Below are positions 21,325 to 25,905 of a stretch of 64,000 nucleotides of DNA, in pieces. The position numbers and the translations under genes are program-made. The stretch is from the NCBI RefSeq assembly GCF_003790525.1, contig NZ_CP033635.1. One strand, 5' to 3'. Position 1 is the stretch's first letter; the number at the start of each line of letters is the position of its first letter. The notes under the pieces are model-generated. The model saw only the letters and a program-made list of their open reading frames with translations, was not told the DNA's origin and ran no database searches. Source of the stretch: Escherichia coli. Its GTDB lineage: Bacteria; Pseudomonadota; Gammaproteobacteria; Enterobacterales; Enterobacteriaceae.

Positions 21325-21930
21325 ATGACGCTCTACCAGATAAAACCGCTCTTTCAGTCGCTGTTAAGGCCGACGATGTTTTGGCTTAATAAGCACCATG
21401 TTACAGCGAATCACATCACTCTTGCTGCACTGGCGCTTTCTCTTCTTACCGGATTGCTGTTGATGTTGGTGGCACAACCCATCCTCTTTTTGCTATTGCC
21501 TATCGTGCTTTTTATCCGTATGGCGCTCAATGCGCTGGATGGCATGATGGCGCGTGAGTGCAATCAGCAAACACGTCTTGGGGCGATTTTGAATGAAACT
21601 GGCGATGTTATTTCCGATATTGCGCTTTATTTACCGTTTTTATTTTTACCGGAAAGTAACGCATCACTCGTAATACTCATGTTATTTTGCACCATATTAA
21701 CTGAGTTTTGCGGTTTACTCGCGCAGACGATTAACGGTATTCGCAGTTATGCCGGTCCATTCGGCAAAAGCGATCGTGCGTTAATATTTGGGTTGTGGGG
21801 GCTGGCTGTTGCCATTTATCCACAGTGGATGCAATGGAATAATCTTTTATGGAGCATTGCTTCAATTTTGCTTCTCTGGACTGCGATTAATCGTTGTCGA
21901 AGTGTGCTCCTGATGAGTGCTGAAAGATAA
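21325..21930 (+). CDS. ynbA: CDP-alcohol phosphatidyltransferase-family membrane protein
   Basis: ORF track 21319..21930; start chosen at the MTLYQIKPLF Met to give 201 aa; motif DGMMARE...GDVISD resembles the CDP-alcohol phosphatidyltransferase signature. Confidence 0.8.
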   Translation: MTLYQIKPLFQSLLRPTMFWLNKHHVTANHITLAALALSLLTGLLLMLVAQPILFLLLPIVLFIRMALNALDGMMARECNQQTRLGAILNETGDVISDIALYLPFLFLPESNASLVILMLFCTILTEFCGLLAQTINGIRSYAGPFGKSDRALIFGLWGLAVAIYPQWMQWNNLLWSIASILLLWTAINRCRSVLLMSAER

Positions 21931-22826
21931 TGCTGGAAAAATCTCTGGCAACACTTTTCGCGTTGTTAATTTTAGCAACGCTGATAAACCGTTTTCTGAT
22001 ATGGCGGTTACCGGAGGGAAAAGGGGGTGAGGTTACATTACGTATTCGTACCTGGTGGGGCATCGTCATTTGTTTTTCAATGGTGATTTCAGGTCCACGC
22101 TGGATGACGTTGACGTTTTTTGCGCTGATAAGTTTTCTGGCATTGAAAGAATATTGTACGCTTATATCCGTACATTTTCCGCGTTGGTTATATTGGGGTA
22201 TTCCTCTTAACTATTTGCTTATCGGTTTTAATTGCTTTGAGCTGTTTCTGTTATTTATACCTTTGGCTGGGTTTCTGATATTAGCCACCTGGCGAGTTTT
22301 AGTGGGTGACCCCTCTGGTTTTCTGCATACCGTGAGTGCCATTTTTTGTGGCTGGATAATGACCGTTTTCGCCTTGAGTCATGCCGCCTGGTTATTAATG
22401 TTGCCAACCACAAATATCCAGGGCGGGGCGTTACTGGTGTTATTTCTTTTGGCGTTAACCGAGTCAAACGATATTGCACAGTATTTATGGGGAAAATCCT
22501 GCGGCAGAAGAAAAGTGGTCCCCAAAGTCAGCCCGGGAAAAACACTGGAAGGTCTGATGGGCGGCGTAATCACCACCATGATAGCGTCGATGATCATTGG
22601 ACCGTTATTGACACCCTTAAACGCCTGGCAGGCATTATTGGCGGGGTTACTGATTGGGGTAAGTGGTTTTTGCGGCGATGTAGTGATGTCAGCCATCAAA
22701 CGAGATATTGGTGTTAAAGATAGTGGAAAACTATTACCAGGACATGGCGGACTCCTTGACAGGATTGACTCATTAATTTTCACCGCTCCGGTATTTTTTT
22801 ATTTTATTCGCTACTGCTGTTACTGA
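21930..22826 (+). CDS. ynbB: CdsA-like phosphatidate cytidylyltransferase-family membrane protein
   Basis: 298-aa polytopic ORF; start overlaps the ynbA stop (TAATG); C-terminal region resembles CdsA. Confidence 0.8.
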   Translation: MLEKSLATLFALLILATLINRFLIWRLPEGKGGEVTLRIRTWWGIVICFSMVISGPRWMTLTFFALISFLALKEYCTLISVHFPRWLYWGIPLNYLLIGFNCFELFLLFIPLAGFLILATWRVLVGDPSGFLHTVSAIFCGWIMTVFALSHAAWLLMLPTTNIQGGALLVLFLLALTESNDIAQYLWGKSCGRRKVVPKVSPGKTLEGLMGGVITTMIASMIIGPLLTPLNAWQALLAGLLIGVSGFCGDVVMSAIKRDIGVKDSGKLLPGHGGLLDRIDSLIFTAPVFFYFIRYCCY

Positions 22827-22841
22827 AGGAAAATAGAGAAA

Positions 22842-24599
22842 ATGGAAAATTCACGCATCCCTGGGGAACATTTTTTTACCACCAGTGATAATACAGCGTT
22901 GTTTTATCGGCACTGGCCCACTTTACAGCCAGGGGCGAAAAAGGTCATCGTCTTATTTCATCGCGGTCATGAACATTCTGGTCGTCTACAACATATCGTT
23001 GATGAACTGGCGATGCCAGATACTGCTTTTTATGCATGGGATGCCCGAGGGCATGGACAAACTTCGGGGCCGCGTGGTTATAGTCCGTCTCTTGCGCGTT
23101 CAGTGCAGGATGTCGATGAATTTGTCCGTTTTGCTGCCAGCGACAGCCAGGTCGGACTGGAAGAGGTGGTTGTGATCGCGCAAAGCGTCGGCGCAGTGAT
23201 GGTTGCTACATGGGTTCATGATTATGCGCCTGCTATTCGCGGGCTGGTGCTGGCTTCTCCGGCCTTTAAGGTTAAATTGTATGTGCCGCTGGCACGTCCT
23301 GCGCTGGCGTTATGGCATCGTCTGCGTGGTCTGTTTTTTATTAATTCCTATGTGAAAGGACGCTATTTGACCCACGATCGGCAACGGGTGGCGAGTTTCA
23401 ATAATGATCCGCTGATCACACGGGCGATTGCCGTTAATATCTTGCTCGATCTTTATAAAACGTCTGAACGTATTGTTAGCGATGCGGCGGCGATTACGCT
23501 CCCCACGCAACTTCTGATATCAGGCGATGACTATGTGGTGCATCGTCAACCGCAGATTGATTTTTATCAGAGATTACGTAGCCCTCTGAAAGAGCTGCAT
23601 CTGCTGCCAGGCTTTTATCACGACACGTTGGGTGAAGAGAACAGGGCGCAGGCATTTGAAAAAATGCAAAGCTTTATTAGTCGTTTATATGCTAACAAAT
23701 CGCAAAAATTTGATTATCAGCATGAAGACCGCACTGGACCATCAGCGGATCGCTGGCGGCTCCTTTCAGGTGGACCCGTGCCATTATCGCCGGTTGATTT
23801 GGCGTATCGCTTTATGCGTAAAGCGATGAAATTGTTCGAGACGCACTCTGCGGGCCTGCATCTCGGAATGAGCACCGGCTTTGATTCAGGCAGTTCGCTG
23901 GATTATGTCTATCAAAATCAACCGCAAGGTAGTAACGCATTCGGGCGTTTAGTCGACAAAATCTACCTGAACAGTGTTGGCTGGCGCGGTATTCGCCAGC
24001 GCAAAACCCATTTACAAATGCTGATTAAACAAGCCGTTGCCGATCTCCACGCCAAAGGTTTAGCCATCCGCGTGGTTGACATTGCCGCAGGGCATGGGCG
24101 CTATGTACTGGATGCGCTGGAGTATGAACCTGCCGTATGCGATATTTTGTTACATGATTACAGTGAGTTAAATGTTGCACAGGGGCAAGAGATGATTGCC
24201 CAACGGGGAATGTCTGGGCGGGTGCGTTATGAACAGGGCGATGCGTTTAATCCGGCAGAACTCAGCACGTTAACTCCGCGGCCTACGCTGGCGATTGTCT
24301 CTGGCCTGTATGAGCTTTTTCCCGAAAATGAGCAGGTAAAAAACTCACTCGCAGGTCTTGCCAATGCCATCGATCCGGGTGGCATTCTCATCTACACCGG
24401 GCAGCCGTGGCACCCACAACTGGAGCTGATTGCCGGGGTGTTAACCAGTCATAAAGATGGTAAACCGTGGGTAATGCGCGTGCGTTCTCAAGGGGAGATG
24501 GATTCGCTCGTGCATGATGCCGGATTTGATAAATGCACACAACGGATTGATGAGTGGGGCATTTTTACGGTTTCGATGGCGGTGCGTCGTGATAACTGA
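22842..24599 (+). CDS. ynbC: fusion protein: N-terminal alpha/beta-hydrolase, C-terminal SAM-dependent methyltransferase-like domain
   Basis: 585-aa ORF; nucleophile elbow AQSVG in the N-terminal half; glycine-rich DIAAGHGRY motif in the C-terminal half. Confidence 0.8.
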
Positions 24600-25905
24600 A
24601 CGCCGGAACGTATTGCTACAAGGAGCTGGCTGGTTATTGTTGCTGGCCCCGTTTTTCTTCTTCACATATGGATTTCTTAATCAGTTCACCGCGACTCAGG
24701 ATCTTAACAACCATGATATCCCCAGTCAGGTATTCGGTTGGGAAACGGCGATCCCTTTTCTTCCCTGGACTATTTTGCCTTACTGGAGTCTGGATCTTTT
24801 ATATGGATTTTCGCTGTTCGTTTGTAGCTCGACATTTGAGCAGCGCCGTCTGGTCCACCGGCTTATTCTGGCAACGGTAATGGCCTGCTGCGGTTTTTTT
24901 CTCTATCCGCTGAAGTTTAGTTTTATCCGTCCTGAAGTGAGTGGGGTGACAGGATGGTTATTTTCGCAACTTGAATTGTTTGATCTGCCTTATAACCAGT
25001 CTCCTTCGCTGCATATTATTCTCTGCTGGCTACTTTGGCGTCACTTTCGTCAGCATCTGGCTGTGAGGTGGCGTAAAGTCTGTGGCGGATGGTTTTTACT
25101 CATCGCCATTTCGACGCTAACGACCTGGCAGCATCATTTTATTGATGTCATCACAGGGCTGGCGGTAGGTATGTTAATTGACTGGATGGTGCCCGTCGAC
25201 CGTCGTTGGAATTATCAGAAACCTGATCAACGTCGAATCAAAATAGCACTGCCATATGTCGTAGGCGCGTGCTCGTGCATTGTGTTGATGGAGCTAATGA
25301 TAATGCTTCAGTTATGGTGGTCAGTCTGGTTATGTTGGCCAGTATTATCGCTACTCATTATTGGCCGTGGGTACGGTGGGCTTGGCGCGATAACAACAGG
25401 TAAAGATAGTCAAGGGAAACTCCCGCCCGCCGTTTACTGGCTGACATTGCCATGGCGCATCGGGATGTGGCTGTCTATGCGTTGGTTTTGCCTTCGCCTG
25501 GAGCCGGTGAGCAAAATTACTGCTGGTGTTTATTTAGGGGCGTTTCCACGACATATTCCGGCACAGAATGCGGTTCTGGACGTCACCTTTGAATTCCCTC
25601 GCGGACGAGCGACAAAAGATCGACTCTATTTTTGTGTACCGATGTTGGATCTGGTAGTTCCGGAAGAGGGGGAGCTCCGACAGGCCGTGGCGATGCTGGA
25701 AACATTACGCGAAGAGCAAGGCGGCGTTCTGGTCCATTGCGCGTTGGGATTATCGCGCAGTGCGCTGGTGGTGGCGGCATGGCTGTTATGTTACGGACAT
25801 TGTAAAACCGTTGATGAAGCGATTAGTTATATTCGAGCCAGACGCTCGCGGATTGTGCTTAAGGAAGAGCACAAAGCGATGCTGAAATTATGGGAAAACA
25901 GGTAA
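24589..25905 (+). CDS. ynbD: membrane protein with C-terminal dual-specificity (Cys-based) phosphatase domain
   Basis: ORF track 24514..25905; probable GTG start (MITERRNV) overlapping the ynbC stop; polytopic N-terminal half; CX5R active-site motif [10 protein letters not shown] near the C-terminus. Confidence 0.75.

Follow-up and report, generated by a model that had tools for sequence, protein, structure and literature searches.

The ynbABCD operon of Escherichia coli and its relation to the six-gene arc1-type cluster

Positions 21325-25905 of the window, the whole 64,000-nucleotide stretch of Escherichia coli DNA analyzed here, carry four tightly packed, co-directional genes, and the question they raise is which lipid chemistry they serve together. 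An earlier note had read them as activation, transfer, modification and dephosphorylation steps for a lipid head group, an idea that is consistent with the gene content. The region is the known E. coli operon ynbABCD (Table 1). Positions 21000-26100 match E. coli SMS-3-5 (NC_010498.1) at 100%, and the RefSeq annotation there names the genes ynbA, ynbB, ynbC and ynbD; both the close packing, seen in the ORF coordinates as well as in this match, and the status of known y-genes had been recognized correctly.

Table 1 Features of the ynbABCD region (positions in the window)
Feature	Position (nt)	Strand	Residues	Description
ydbD-ynbA intergenic region	21156-21324	+		169-bp AT-rich spacer, with ynbA promoter region
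ynbA	21325-21930	+	201 aa	CDP-alcohol phosphatidyltransferase-family membrane protein; arc1A homologue
ynbB	21930-22826	+	298 aa	CdsA-type CDP-diacylglycerol synthase; arc1F homologue
ynbC	22842-24599	+	585 aa	Two domains; arc1B homologue
YnbC serine hydrolase domain	~22935-23639	+	32-266	Monoacylglycerol-lipase-like
YnbC methyltransferase domain	~23664-24587	+	275-582	Class I SAM methyltransferase-like
ynbD	24589-25905	+	438 aa	From GTG 24589; arc1C homologue
YnbD membrane domain		+	~1-300	PAP2 superfamily, eight helices
YnbD PAP2-type catalytic motifs	25003-25146	+		C2-like and C3-like
YnbD C2-like motif	25003-25014	+	139-142	PSLH
YnbD C3-like motif	25129-25146 (QHHFID)	+	181-186 (QHHFID)	S175...QHHFID
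YnbD phosphatase domain	25528-25899	+	314-437	Cytoplasmic, dual-specificity
YnbD CX5R P-loop	25738-25758	+	384-390	C384-A-L-G-L-S-R390, read directly in sequence

The locus and its six-gene relatives

Stop/start overlaps had been described at two junctions. The one between ynbA and ynbB is present (1 nt, TGATG), and a gap of 15 nt separates ynbB from ynbC; the one between ynbC and ynbD depends on the start chosen. In the RefSeq annotation of this strain, ynbD starts at TTG 24613, 13 nt past the ynbC stop, and encodes 430 amino acids without any overlap, while a start at GTG 24589 gives 438 amino acids and an overlap of 11 nt. The GTG start is favoured because the additional N-terminal residues align with homologues (for example, those of E. 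coli with TTRRAVILQGIGW of Vibrio), PGAP uses the equivalent start in strain Ecol_224 and the two genes of S. bongori also overlap by 11 nt.

In K-12, BglJ-RcsB switches on the ynbA promoter through a site whose center lies 65-68 nt upstream of where transcription was mapped to begin (PMC3950696). The operon is AT-rich. For the ydbD-ynbA intergenic region, a simple sigma-70 scan gave no strong consensus promoter and an Rfam search gave no match.

The four genes had been called a conserved operon, but the conserved unit comprises six, two of which are missing from the reduced form in E. coli. The ynb genes do co-occur widely; outside E. coli, the set also includes a small membrane protein and a PlsC-like acyltransferase, the latter with HX4D in 70/70 sequences. 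The six-gene arrangement was found in at least 65 of 80 loci and occurs in Salmonella, Yersinia, Pseudomonas, Acinetobacter, Xanthomonadaceae, Rhodocyclales and Acidobacteria, and at least 590 species have a relative of YnbD. In S. bongori, the six-gene form occupies the same chromosomal site as the E. coli operon, and a single natural protein joins YnbD to the acyltransferase. No seventh conserved neighbour of the cluster was found, in particular no sugar or inositol supplier.

The cluster of P. aeruginosa, PA2541-PA2536, is arc1A-F, antagonism resistance cluster 1 (Ting et al., eLife 2022, PMC8926400). Its identity was confirmed with the primers published for deltaPA2541, which coincide exactly with the two ends of the P. 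aeruginosa YnbA homologue, its start and its stop. Of the arc1 products, E. coli lacks the small membrane protein, Arc1D, and the acyltransferase, Arc1E, and no trace of homologues of either was detected in the 64-kb window.

About 21% of the complete E. coli genomes have no intact operon: no ynb DNA match was obtained in 658 of 5426 (~12%), partial copies were present in ~485 (~9%), and strain G3/10 has a ynbA'-'ynbC fusion pseudogene. These losses, together with that of two of the six genes, would suit an operon in decay that no longer functions as a coherent pathway, with YnbB alone keeping an incidental CDP-DAG synthase activity, as would the absent or merely background-dependent phenotypes of ynbB knockouts and Keio ynbC deletions. 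The AT-richness of the operon points the same way, given that BglJ-RcsB relieves H-NS repression at some target loci (PMC3950696). We nevertheless regard decay as quite unlikely, as 79% of genomes keep the four frames intact, a specific activator acts on the promoter, and all four genes are under purifying selection, with dN/dS of 0.06-0.22 between two E. coli lineages at ~4% DNA divergence. Moreover, the catalytic residues that are invariant in distant homologues are all kept in E. coli.

The four proteins

Domain searches support the family assignments made earlier for all four proteins (CDP-alcohol phosphatidyltransferase, CdsA, hydrolase with SAM-methyltransferase, CX5R phosphatase), each of which has Pfam matches. 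Structure prediction agrees, with AlphaFold giving a two-domain YnbC (pLDDT 90.5) and a YnbD made up of a PAP2 and a dual-specificity phosphatase (DSP) domain (pLDDT 96, pTM 0.92).

YnbB matches CTP_transf_1 (PF01148, 5e-70) and contains the CdsA-type signature SAIKRDIGVKDSGKLLPGHGGLLDRID. This CdsA paralogue was reported to make CDP-diacylglycerol and to support formation of GlcNAc-PP-DAG, the precursor of the glycolipid MPIase (PMC6362211, PMC7018664, PMC11413397); its activity is too low for bulk phospholipid synthesis, where it does not replace CdsA (PMC6362211, PMC7018664). The earlier statement that no product is assigned is, therefore, incorrect for YnbB and correct for YnbA, YnbC and YnbD, for which none is named in the literature searched. 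The published role thus gives a defined product to one gene only, not to the pathway, and the same literature assigns no final lipid product to the cluster in any organism.

These reports suggest an alternative, a dedicated MPIase pathway, in which YnbB would provide CDP-DAG, YnbA would join its phosphatidyl group to GlcNAc-1-phosphate, yielding GlcNAc-PP-DAG (compound I), and the glycolipid would be trimmed or modified by YnbC and YnbD. A CDP-alcohol phosphatidyltransferase would be the natural catalyst for CDP-DAG + GlcNAc-1-P -> DAG-PP-GlcNAc + CMP, YnbA keeps a phosphate-binding pocket, and lipid pyrophosphates are frequent substrates of PAP2 enzymes. MPIase increases when YnbB is overproduced and, unlike bulk phospholipid, is restored under CdsA depletion (PMC6362211, PMC7018664); ynbB is also cold-induced along with MPIase, according to a review (PMC11413397). 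However, the MPIase level is unchanged in a ynbB knockout, and MPIase is reported to be essential, yet the genomes without ynb DNA or with partial copies number as given above. The cluster is kept in Pseudomonas, Acinetobacter, Xanthomonadaceae, Rhodocyclales and Acidobacteria, whereas the ECA-type trisaccharide belongs to enterobacteria; the conserved neighbours include no glycosyltransferase or sugar-nucleotide gene; and ynbA is unmentioned in the MPIase literature searched, as are ynbC and ynbD where checked. A dedicated MPIase pathway is hence considered unlikely.

YnbA matches CDP-OH_P_transf (PF01066, 5e-9). In NCBIfam it comes closest to archaetidylinositol-phosphate synthase (4.7e-21), then to PIP synthase (3.8e-13) and PgsA (1e-6), all with scores under the curated cut-offs (75 vs 180 bits; for PgsA, 29 against 109 bits), and the closest solved relative is the mycobacterial PIP synthase 6H53 (3.9e-8). 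The signature reads N-x2-D-G-x2-A-R-x8-G-x3-N-x3-D-x3-D, with Asn for Asp at D1 and D3 in 82/83 homologues. These two positions are metal ligands and belong to the eight 'absolutely conserved' residues of the CDP-alcohol signature; the donor, the use of metal or even the reaction may, therefore, differ from the textbook case. The GKSDR motif, invariant in 84/84 sequences, lines up with R152/R155 of PgsA1 from M. tuberculosis, which bind the acceptor phosphate.

YnbC matches Hydrolase_4 (6e-68) and Methyltransf_20 (2e-148). The nearest relatives of the hydrolase domain are monoacylglycerol lipases, and HRGHEH, Q114-S115-V116-G117-A118, D230 and H260-D261 are invariant in the homologue alignment. 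In the methyltransferase domain, for which a search for a characterized relative found none, DIAAGHGRY and SGLYELF are invariant and GDAF nearly so (≥90%).

In YnbD, the DSPc match (6e-26) contains HCALGLSRS (C384...R390). The polytopic part is a PAP2-superfamily domain, a point absent from the earlier note, with a weak match (3e-4) to PAP2_3 (PF14378), which we take to be the Aur1/IPC-synthase family. Across 39 homologues, P139-S140-L141-H142, S175, H182, D186, D354 (the presumed general acid), C384, G387 and R390 do not vary; S175, H182 and D186 are spaced as in the PAP2 C3 motif, S(i)...H(i+7)...D(i+11), and the C1 motif is degenerate, presumably as in SMS enzymes. By the positive-inside rule, both PAP2 motifs are predicted at periplasmic helix ends, and an eight-helix, N-in topology would place the two active sites of YnbD on opposite faces of the membrane. 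The fold of the membrane domain is nearer to SMSr and Aur1 than to PgpB; as the margin over PgpB/LpxE is modest, it does not separate a hydrolase from a transferase.

The relatives of YnbA and YnbD could also be read as an inositol-type lipid pathway, with YnbA acting as PIP synthase and the two parts of YnbD as PIP phosphatase (DSP domain) and inositol-phosphoryl transferase (Aur1-like domain). The two top NCBIfam matches of YnbA use inositol-phosphate, its best solved relative is a PIP synthase, and the membrane domain of YnbD matches PF14378 and has an Aur1/SMSr-like fold. Pathways of this kind in Bacteroidetes and mycobacteria serve as the model, and the phosphatase downstream of mycobacterial PIP synthase is still to be identified (PMC6506517). 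Nonetheless, the NCBIfam scores fall far short of the curated cut-offs, and no inositol-phosphate synthase or other inositol gene is among the conserved neighbours. Neither E. coli nor Pseudomonas is known to have a myo-inositol-phosphate synthase, a ceramide acceptor or inositol lipids, and we consider an inositol product very unlikely.

By sequence, the DSP domain is closest to DUSP26 and DUSP14, and by fold to DUSP4 and DUSP5, all of them protein phosphatases; its P-loop, CALGLSR, is DUSP-like. YnbD might then be a membrane-anchored signalling phosphatase that regulates the adjacent lipid genes and is not fed by them. Against this, the lipid phosphatase PTPMT1 is equally close in fold, the DSP domain invariably shares its polypeptide with a PAP2-type lipid-enzyme domain whose catalytic residues are intact (and, in one protein, with an acyltransferase too), and no kinase or phosphoprotein partner is among the conserved neighbours; a signalling role is, thus, highly improbable.

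A proposed side branch of phospholipid synthesis

The explanation to which we give slightly better than even odds is that ynbABCD is the reduced E. coli ortholog of a six-gene Arc1-type cluster and constitutes a self-contained CDP-diacylglycerol side branch of phospholipid synthesis and remodelling, normally silent and induced by stress. YnbB would convert phosphatidic acid and CTP to a small local pool of CDP-diacylglycerol, an activity known from the literature. YnbA would then move the phosphatidyl group onto a phosphorylated alcohol, in the simplest case glycerol-3-phosphate, to give a phosphatidyl-alcohol-phosphate; this step is proposed because its nearest relatives are PIP, AIP and PGP synthases and the phosphate-binding basic residues are kept, albeit with an altered metal site. 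The cytoplasmic CX5R domain of YnbD may strip the phosphate from this intermediate; PTPMT1 dephosphorylates phosphatidylglycerophosphate in mitochondria. The periplasm-facing, SMS/Aur1-like PAP2 domain would cleave or transfer a phospho-head-group in the outer leaflet, and YnbC may take an acyl chain off a lyso- or monoacyl-lipid and methylate some further group. In most bacteria, the PlsC-like acyltransferase and the small membrane protein complete the set, both having been lost in E. coli, and what YnbB supplies to MPIase would be drawn from its CDP-DAG pool as a secondary use. By analogy with the defence of the Pseudomonas homologue against T6SS lipases, the operon probably serves to repair or modify the membrane when the envelope is attacked.

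Several points weigh against this side-branch reading: no lipid product is reported for the cluster, two of the six genes are missing in E. coli and the operon in many strains, and, as PgsA and PgpABC are already present, a second PG route needs a reason. The altered metal site of YnbA, the modest fold margin of the YnbD membrane domain and the lack of a characterized relative for the methyltransferase domain count against it as well.

Comparison with known systems

The canonical PG pathway (PlsC, CdsA, PgsA, PgpA/B/C; in mitochondria with the CX5R enzyme PTPMT1) follows the same order of chemistry, namely acylation, CTP activation, CDP-alcohol transfer to a phosphorylated alcohol and dephosphorylation, and YnbB is a CdsA-family member, while YnbA falls within the PgsA superfamily. 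It differs in that YnbA is below the PgsA cut-off with N at D1 and D3, YnbB does not substitute for CdsA in bulk synthesis, the membrane domain of YnbD resembles SMSr and Aur1 more than PgpB, and a lipase-methyltransferase and a small membrane protein occur in the cluster only. Sphingomyelin synthase and Aur1 share with YnbD the PAP2_3 match and the invariant His-His-Asp catalytic positions; however, identity is only 12-15%, the transferase activity of YnbD is putative, the ceramide acceptor is missing in bacteria with the cluster, and neither enzyme is fused to a cytoplasmic CX5R phosphatase.

The CdsA/MPIase pathway studied by the Nishiyama laboratory is alike in that YnbB makes CDP-DAG and supports MPIase synthesis if overproduced. 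That work concerns ynbB without ynbA, ynbC and ynbD. E. coli can do without the operon and often lacks it, and the distribution of the cluster is far wider than that of ECA/MPIase-type taxa. The LplT/Aas lysophospholipid repair system also links lipid handling to defence against phospholipase attack, the same T6SS-lipase screens having yielded aas and arc1A, and the full cluster likewise includes an acyltransferase and a lyso/monoacyl-lipid hydrolase-like domain. Its proteins are, however, non-homologous to Ynb/Arc1, and it re-acylates existing lysolipids, whereas Ynb/Arc1 adds de novo head-group chemistry (CdsA-like, CDP-alcohol transferase).

The arc1 cluster is required for surviving type VI secretion attack, lipase effectors included (PMC8926400; bioRxiv 10.1101/2024.10.26.620397), and Ting et al. 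remarked on its four phosphatidylglycerol-pathway homologues (PMC8926400). Domain architectures are common to both sets, with identities of 49% for YnbA/Arc1A, 55% for YnbC/Arc1B, 40% for YnbD/Arc1C and 39% for YnbB/Arc1F, and both were reported to be near-silent until a stress regulator acts (Gac/Rsm for arc1 in Pseudomonas, BglJ-RcsB for ynb in E. coli). The gene order differs (A-B-C-D in E. coli, A-C-D-small-E-B in arc1), and the defence phenotype is known from Pseudomonas only. No link between ynb and arc1 was drawn in the literature searched; the genes are known and the system is partly studied.

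The ynbABCD operon and its surroundings

Four open reading frames, all running in one direction, occupy 21325-25905 of the window (see the table). The DNA at 21000-26100 is 100% identical to that of E. coli SMS-3-5 (NC_010498.1), where RefSeq annotates the genes as ynbA, ynbB, ynbC and ynbD. The operon is flanked by ydbD on one side and by the convergent azoR on the other, with hrpA further downstream. The first two genes overlap by one base, and 15 nt separate ynbB from ynbC. For ynbD, the RefSeq annotation of this strain uses a TTG codon 13 nt past the ynbC stop; an upstream GTG codon gives a protein of 438 amino acids and an 11-nt overlap with ynbC. 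The GTG is the better-supported start: the added residues align with homologues, the codon is the PGAP start in another strain, and S. bongori has the same 11-nt overlap. With this start, the tight gene coupling described in the earlier note is borne out.

Coordinates of the features discussed (window positions unless another locus is named)
Feature	Sequence	Position	Strand	Pfam matches and remarks
ynbABCD operon	window	21325-25905	+	
ynbA	window	21325-21930	+	CDP-OH_P_transf PF01066, i-Evalue 5.3e-9, model positions 3-148/152
ynbB	window	21930-22826	+	CTP_transf_1 PF01148, 5e-70
ynbC	window	22842-24599	+	Hydrolase_4, 6e-68; Methyltransf_20 PF12147, 2e-148
ynbD	window	to 25905	+	DSPc, 6e-26, with HCALGLSRS; PAP2_3, 3e-4
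ynbD start, better supported	window	24589	+	GTG
ynbD start, RefSeq	window	24613	+	TTG
220-aa ORF	window	25890-26552	+	antisense to azoR
azoR	window	25959-26564	-	
Split ydbD	window	18844-19590 and 19590-21155		two ORFs
Deletion in ydbD	window	19549		1 nt, relative to NC_010498.1
Substitution in ydbD	window	19393		A for G, relative to NC_010498.1
Substitution in hrpA	window	29409		G for T, relative to NC_010498.1
Fused PAP2, DSP and acyltransferase gene	L007, metagenomic contig (P0171)	259-2259		666 aa, followed by a ynbB-like gene
ynb cluster of Vibrio fluvialis	L002	5233-10673		
arc1A-F of P. aeruginosa	L089	2465-7866		same strand as tamA and tamB
ynb deletion in strain G3/10	L093	1501-3165		

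Comparison with NC_010498.1 over the wider interval 17000-30100 gave three differences. Two are substitutions; the third, a single-base deletion, splits ydbD, which RefSeq gives as a single coding sequence of 768 amino acids. These may represent strain differences, sequencing errors or a real frameshift. Promoter and terminator consensus sites were no commoner at 21050-26100 than in shuffled sequence, none lay in the spacer upstream of ynbA, and an Rfam search of the ynb region gave no match. A 220-aa ORF just past ynbC and ynbD is no fifth ynb gene and is a shadow ORF antisense to azoR; in a similarity search it was unlike the small protein that trails ynbD in other bacteria.

Domains and active sites of the four proteins

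The earlier note had assigned domains to all four products, and each assignment was confirmed by Pfam. For YnbD it had recognized the CX5R phosphatase domain and left the polytopic part unidentified; the latter is now seen to be a domain of the PAP2 superfamily. All catalytic residues of the four proteins are conserved in sequence comparison.

YnbB carries the CdsA-family signature S-x-[LIVMF]-K-R-x4-K-D...H-G-G-x-x-D-R-x-D, and its CDP-diacylglycerol (CDP-DAG) synthase activity has been reported (PMC6362211, PMC7018664). The N-terminal domain of YnbC has the Ser-Asp-His triad, HG oxyanion motif and fold of a monoacylglycerol-lipase-type alpha/beta hydrolase. Its C-terminal domain is a class I SAM methyltransferase by profile, glycine-rich motif I and downstream acidic residues; the motif DIAAGHGRY does not vary among the sequences compared, and conservation of LRDYS and GDAF reaches 90% or higher. 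A sequence search with this methyltransferase domain gave no characterised solved relative.

YnbA is a member of the CDP-alcohol phosphotransferase family by profile, with a metal site that is non-canonical in sequence. The family signature D1xxD2GxxAR...GxxxD3xxxD4 comprises eight residues described as absolutely conserved, with D1-D3 as metal ligands and D4 as the proposed base (PMC4634129). YnbA retains six of the eight, with Asn at D1 and D3 (NALDGMMAR...GAILNETGDVISD); D4 is kept, and an extra Asp lies at D4+4, one helical turn on. The same two Asn residues occur in 82 of 83 homologues, ynbA has a dN/dS of 0.056, and deletion of the Pseudomonas homologue has a phenotype; Asn/Asn is a conserved variant and not decay. 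The idea that Asn at D3 represents a lost catalytic base, which would suit a phosphate nucleophile and a pyrophosphate product, was rejected on the same published assignment of ligands and base.

Among NCBIfam models, YnbA scored highest with archaetidylinositol-phosphate synthase (75.5 bits against a curated cut-off of 180) and PIP synthase (49.6 against 170), ahead of PgsA (29.2 against 109), all far under the equivalog cut-offs. Its best solved relative is the mycobacterial PIP synthase 6H53 (3.9e-8). An inositol-lipid pathway, to which these families would belong, is nevertheless very improbable, as the cluster comes without an inositol supply. In M. tuberculosis PgsA1, R152 and R155 hold the phosphate of the acceptor, and these align with K148 and R151 of YnbA; the equivalent of R195 falls outside the pairwise alignment. 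The two YnbA residues lie in the motif GKSDR, which all 84 family sequences share. This alignment fits a phosphorylated alcohol as acceptor, with a phosphatase as the following step.

The membrane domain of YnbD has the PAP2 motifs C2 (PSGH type) and C3 (SRx5Hx3D) together with the fold; 39 homologues, with identities as low as 30%, all keep PSLH and S...QHH..D. Of the C1 motif (Kx6RP), which is spaced K-x4-R-P in E. coli, F-x-R-P alone is widely kept: 90% or more of the sequences have P115, and the Lys is variable. The C-terminal domain is a dual-specificity CX5R phosphatase by profile, P-loop Cys and Arg, general-acid Asp and fold, and D354, C384, G387 and R390 are invariant in the same 39 homologues. 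Helix positions and the positive-inside rule predict an N-in protein of eight helices, which would put the PAP2 motifs on the periplasmic side and make the CX5R domain cytoplasmic. PAP2-DSP fusions like YnbD are a large family, represented in 340 clusters at 50% identity (E <= 1e-30). That YnbD serves as a signalling protein phosphatase is scarcely credible. On one metagenomic contig, PAP2, DSP and a PlsC-like acyltransferase form a single protein.

Gene content, spread and selection

The ynb genes had been taken for a conserved four-gene operon. Comparison of neighbourhoods across loci, including those of S. bongori and Yersinia, showed that the conserved unit has six genes. When each species was represented by a single genome, a relative of YnbD turned up in at least 590 species, among them members of Pseudomonas, Acinetobacter, Xanthomonadaceae, Rhodocyclales and Acidobacteria. 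The best 80 loci, which were ranked against a distant query and are not a fair taxonomic sample, comprised 48 from Pseudomonas, eight from Rhodocyclales, six from Acinetobacter, five from Stenotrophomonas, three from Gilliamella and two Acidobacteria MAGs, along with Xanthomonas, Lysobacter, Ahniella and others. The order recurrent in these is ynbA, ynbC, ynbD, a gene for a small membrane protein (about 150 amino acids, without a Pfam match), one for a PlsC-like acyltransferase, whose HX4D motif is present in 70 of 70, and ynbB. Direct search found all six genes in 41 of the 80 loci, and in 24 more an ORF fills the gap of the small gene. When one representative locus was taken from each of 25 genera, these six genes and shadow ORFs were all that recurred; no seventh conserved neighbour, such as an alcohol or sugar supplier, was seen.

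In S. bongori and Yersinia the six genes have the order ynbA, ynbB, acyltransferase, ynbC, ynbD, small gene, and in S. bongori the cluster occupies the same site as in E. coli, adjoining azoR and hrpA. A tblastn search of the 64-kb window with Arc1D, Arc1E and an Orbaceae small protein found nothing, leaving four of the six genes of the Pseudomonas arc1 cluster. It follows from the six genes of S. bongori and Yersinia that both the acyltransferase and the small gene have been lost in E. coli. Three Gilliamella loci have ynbA, ynbC, ynbD, the small gene and ynbB without the acyltransferase, and an Orbaceae genome has ynbA, ynbB, ynbC, ynbD and the small gene; from these intermediate architectures, the acyltransferase was lost more than once. 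In Vibrio fluvialis the cluster adjoins a resolvase gene, includes the small fifth gene and has a ynbB cut to 130 amino acids, which suggests horizontal acquisition followed by partial decay.

Within E. coli, presence is patchy: among 5426 complete genomes, 4283 carry at least 80% of the operon, about 485 carry part of it and 658 carry none. In strain G3/10 the 5' end of ynbA runs, across an internal deletion, straight into the 3' part of ynbC; the annotation lists these two genes as pseudogenes, and ynbD is whole. Where intact, the operon is under purifying selection (dN/dS 0.06-0.22), which speaks against a decaying remnant and makes that explanation quite improbable. Five of the 5430 places in the E. 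coli genome collection that match the ynb region are plasmid-borne and not chromosomal.

A proposed lipid pathway and its relation to Arc1

Previous work in E. coli concerns YnbB, a paralogue of CdsA whose overproduction raises the glycolipid MPIase; upon CdsA depletion it restores MPIase and not bulk phospholipid, and knockout of ynbB alone is without effect (PMC6362211, PMC7018664, PMC11413397). A Tn-seq screen of an ECA-PG-only strain picked up ynbB, though ECA-PG synthesis does not need it. These papers hold no experiments on ynbA, ynbC or ynbD, and the MPIase papers searched for those names mention none of them. In 2008, a ynbC transposon insertion was reported to raise polyphosphate; the effect depended on the strain background, may have been polar and did not appear in the Keio deletion, and was set aside as evidence of ynbC function. 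The view that no product had been assigned thus needs qualifying: YnbB has a published role in CDP-DAG synthesis, and the product of the pathway is unnamed in the literature searched.

The effects of YnbB on MPIase could mean that the operon is a dedicated MPIase pathway. Against this, the cluster, counted by its YnbD relatives, is spread far past bacteria of the ECA/MPIase type and is not accompanied by sugar genes among its conserved neighbours in the 25 genera; moreover, the ynbB knockout is silent and the operon is often lost in E. coli. A dedicated MPIase pathway therefore appears unlikely.

A general lipid pathway is judged slightly more likely than not, with much lower confidence in any specific product. 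In it, YnbB makes CDP-DAG, an activity reported in the literature, and YnbA would move the phosphatidyl group to a phosphorylated alcohol, for which glycerol-3-phosphate is the simplest candidate, given that the cluster has no linked supplier gene. On the cytoplasmic side, the CX5R domain of YnbD may then strip the phosphate, as PTPMT1 does, and its periplasm-facing SMS/Aur1-like domain may cleave or transfer the head group. YnbC would deacylate and methylate, and the acyltransferase, absent from E. coli, would supply phosphatidic acid.

The P. aeruginosa form of this cluster is PA2541-PA2536, as identified from the literature and a primer match. The P. aeruginosa locus, reached through its YnbA homologue, shows the six-gene architecture, and the published primers for deltaPA2541 match exactly at the start and stop of that homologue, with no match in the Pseudomonas loci of other species. 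The E. coli proteins share 49% (YnbA), 55% (YnbC), 40% (YnbD) and 39% (YnbB) identity with their Arc1 counterparts. The P. aeruginosa cluster lies directly downstream of tamA and tamB (translocation and assembly module). It was named arc1A-F, for antagonism resistance cluster 1, is induced by Gac/Rsm and is required to survive T6SS attack by B. thailandensis; it was called phospholipid-related, with four homologues of PG-synthesis enzymes, and no product was named (PMC8926400). In a second study, resistance to the lipase effectors TseL and Tle1 was incomplete without arc1A (bioRxiv 10.1101/2024.10.26.620397).

It is tentatively proposed that the Ynb/Arc1 module makes an undescribed membrane lipid: YnbD would act on two faces upon a phosphatidyl-alcohol-phosphate made by the Asn/Asn transferase, by CX5R dephosphorylation in the cytoplasm and SMS/Aur1-like transfer or cleavage in the periplasm, YnbC would add a methyl mark, and the lipid or envelope change could confer resistance to injected phospholipases. 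The genes themselves, the one assigned role (YnbB) and the published biological function of the homologous cluster are already known. New in the present analysis are the descent of the operon from six genes and its shortening in E. coli, its tie to arc1, the conserved YnbA Asn/Asn signature, the SMS/Aur1-like and probably bifacial architecture of YnbD, and the patchy presence among E. coli strains.

The E. coli copy of this lipid pathway, which is kept in at least several hundred bacterial species, is compact and non-essential. If the operon makes ordinary phosphatidylglycerol, it serves for back-up or repair and is of modest interest; a new lipid or envelope modification would matter for interbacterial competition, membrane-targeting toxins and possibly antibiotic susceptibility. 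In the literature searched, no paper named ynb together with arc1 or PA254x, and no cross-citation was found between the E. coli YnbB/MPIase work and the Pseudomonas Arc1 work. Linking the two suggests direct experiments in the easiest genetic system and calls for caution in regarding YnbB as dedicated to MPIase.

Whether Pseudomonas survives a type VI lipase attack is decided by the arc1 pathway. Protection of this kind has been demonstrated for arc1A-F in P. aeruginosa alone, and E. coli ynbABCD is likened to it by homology. Both clusters are reported to be nearly silent until a stress regulator turns them on, BglJ-RcsB at the ynbA promoter of E. coli and Gac/Rsm for arc1.
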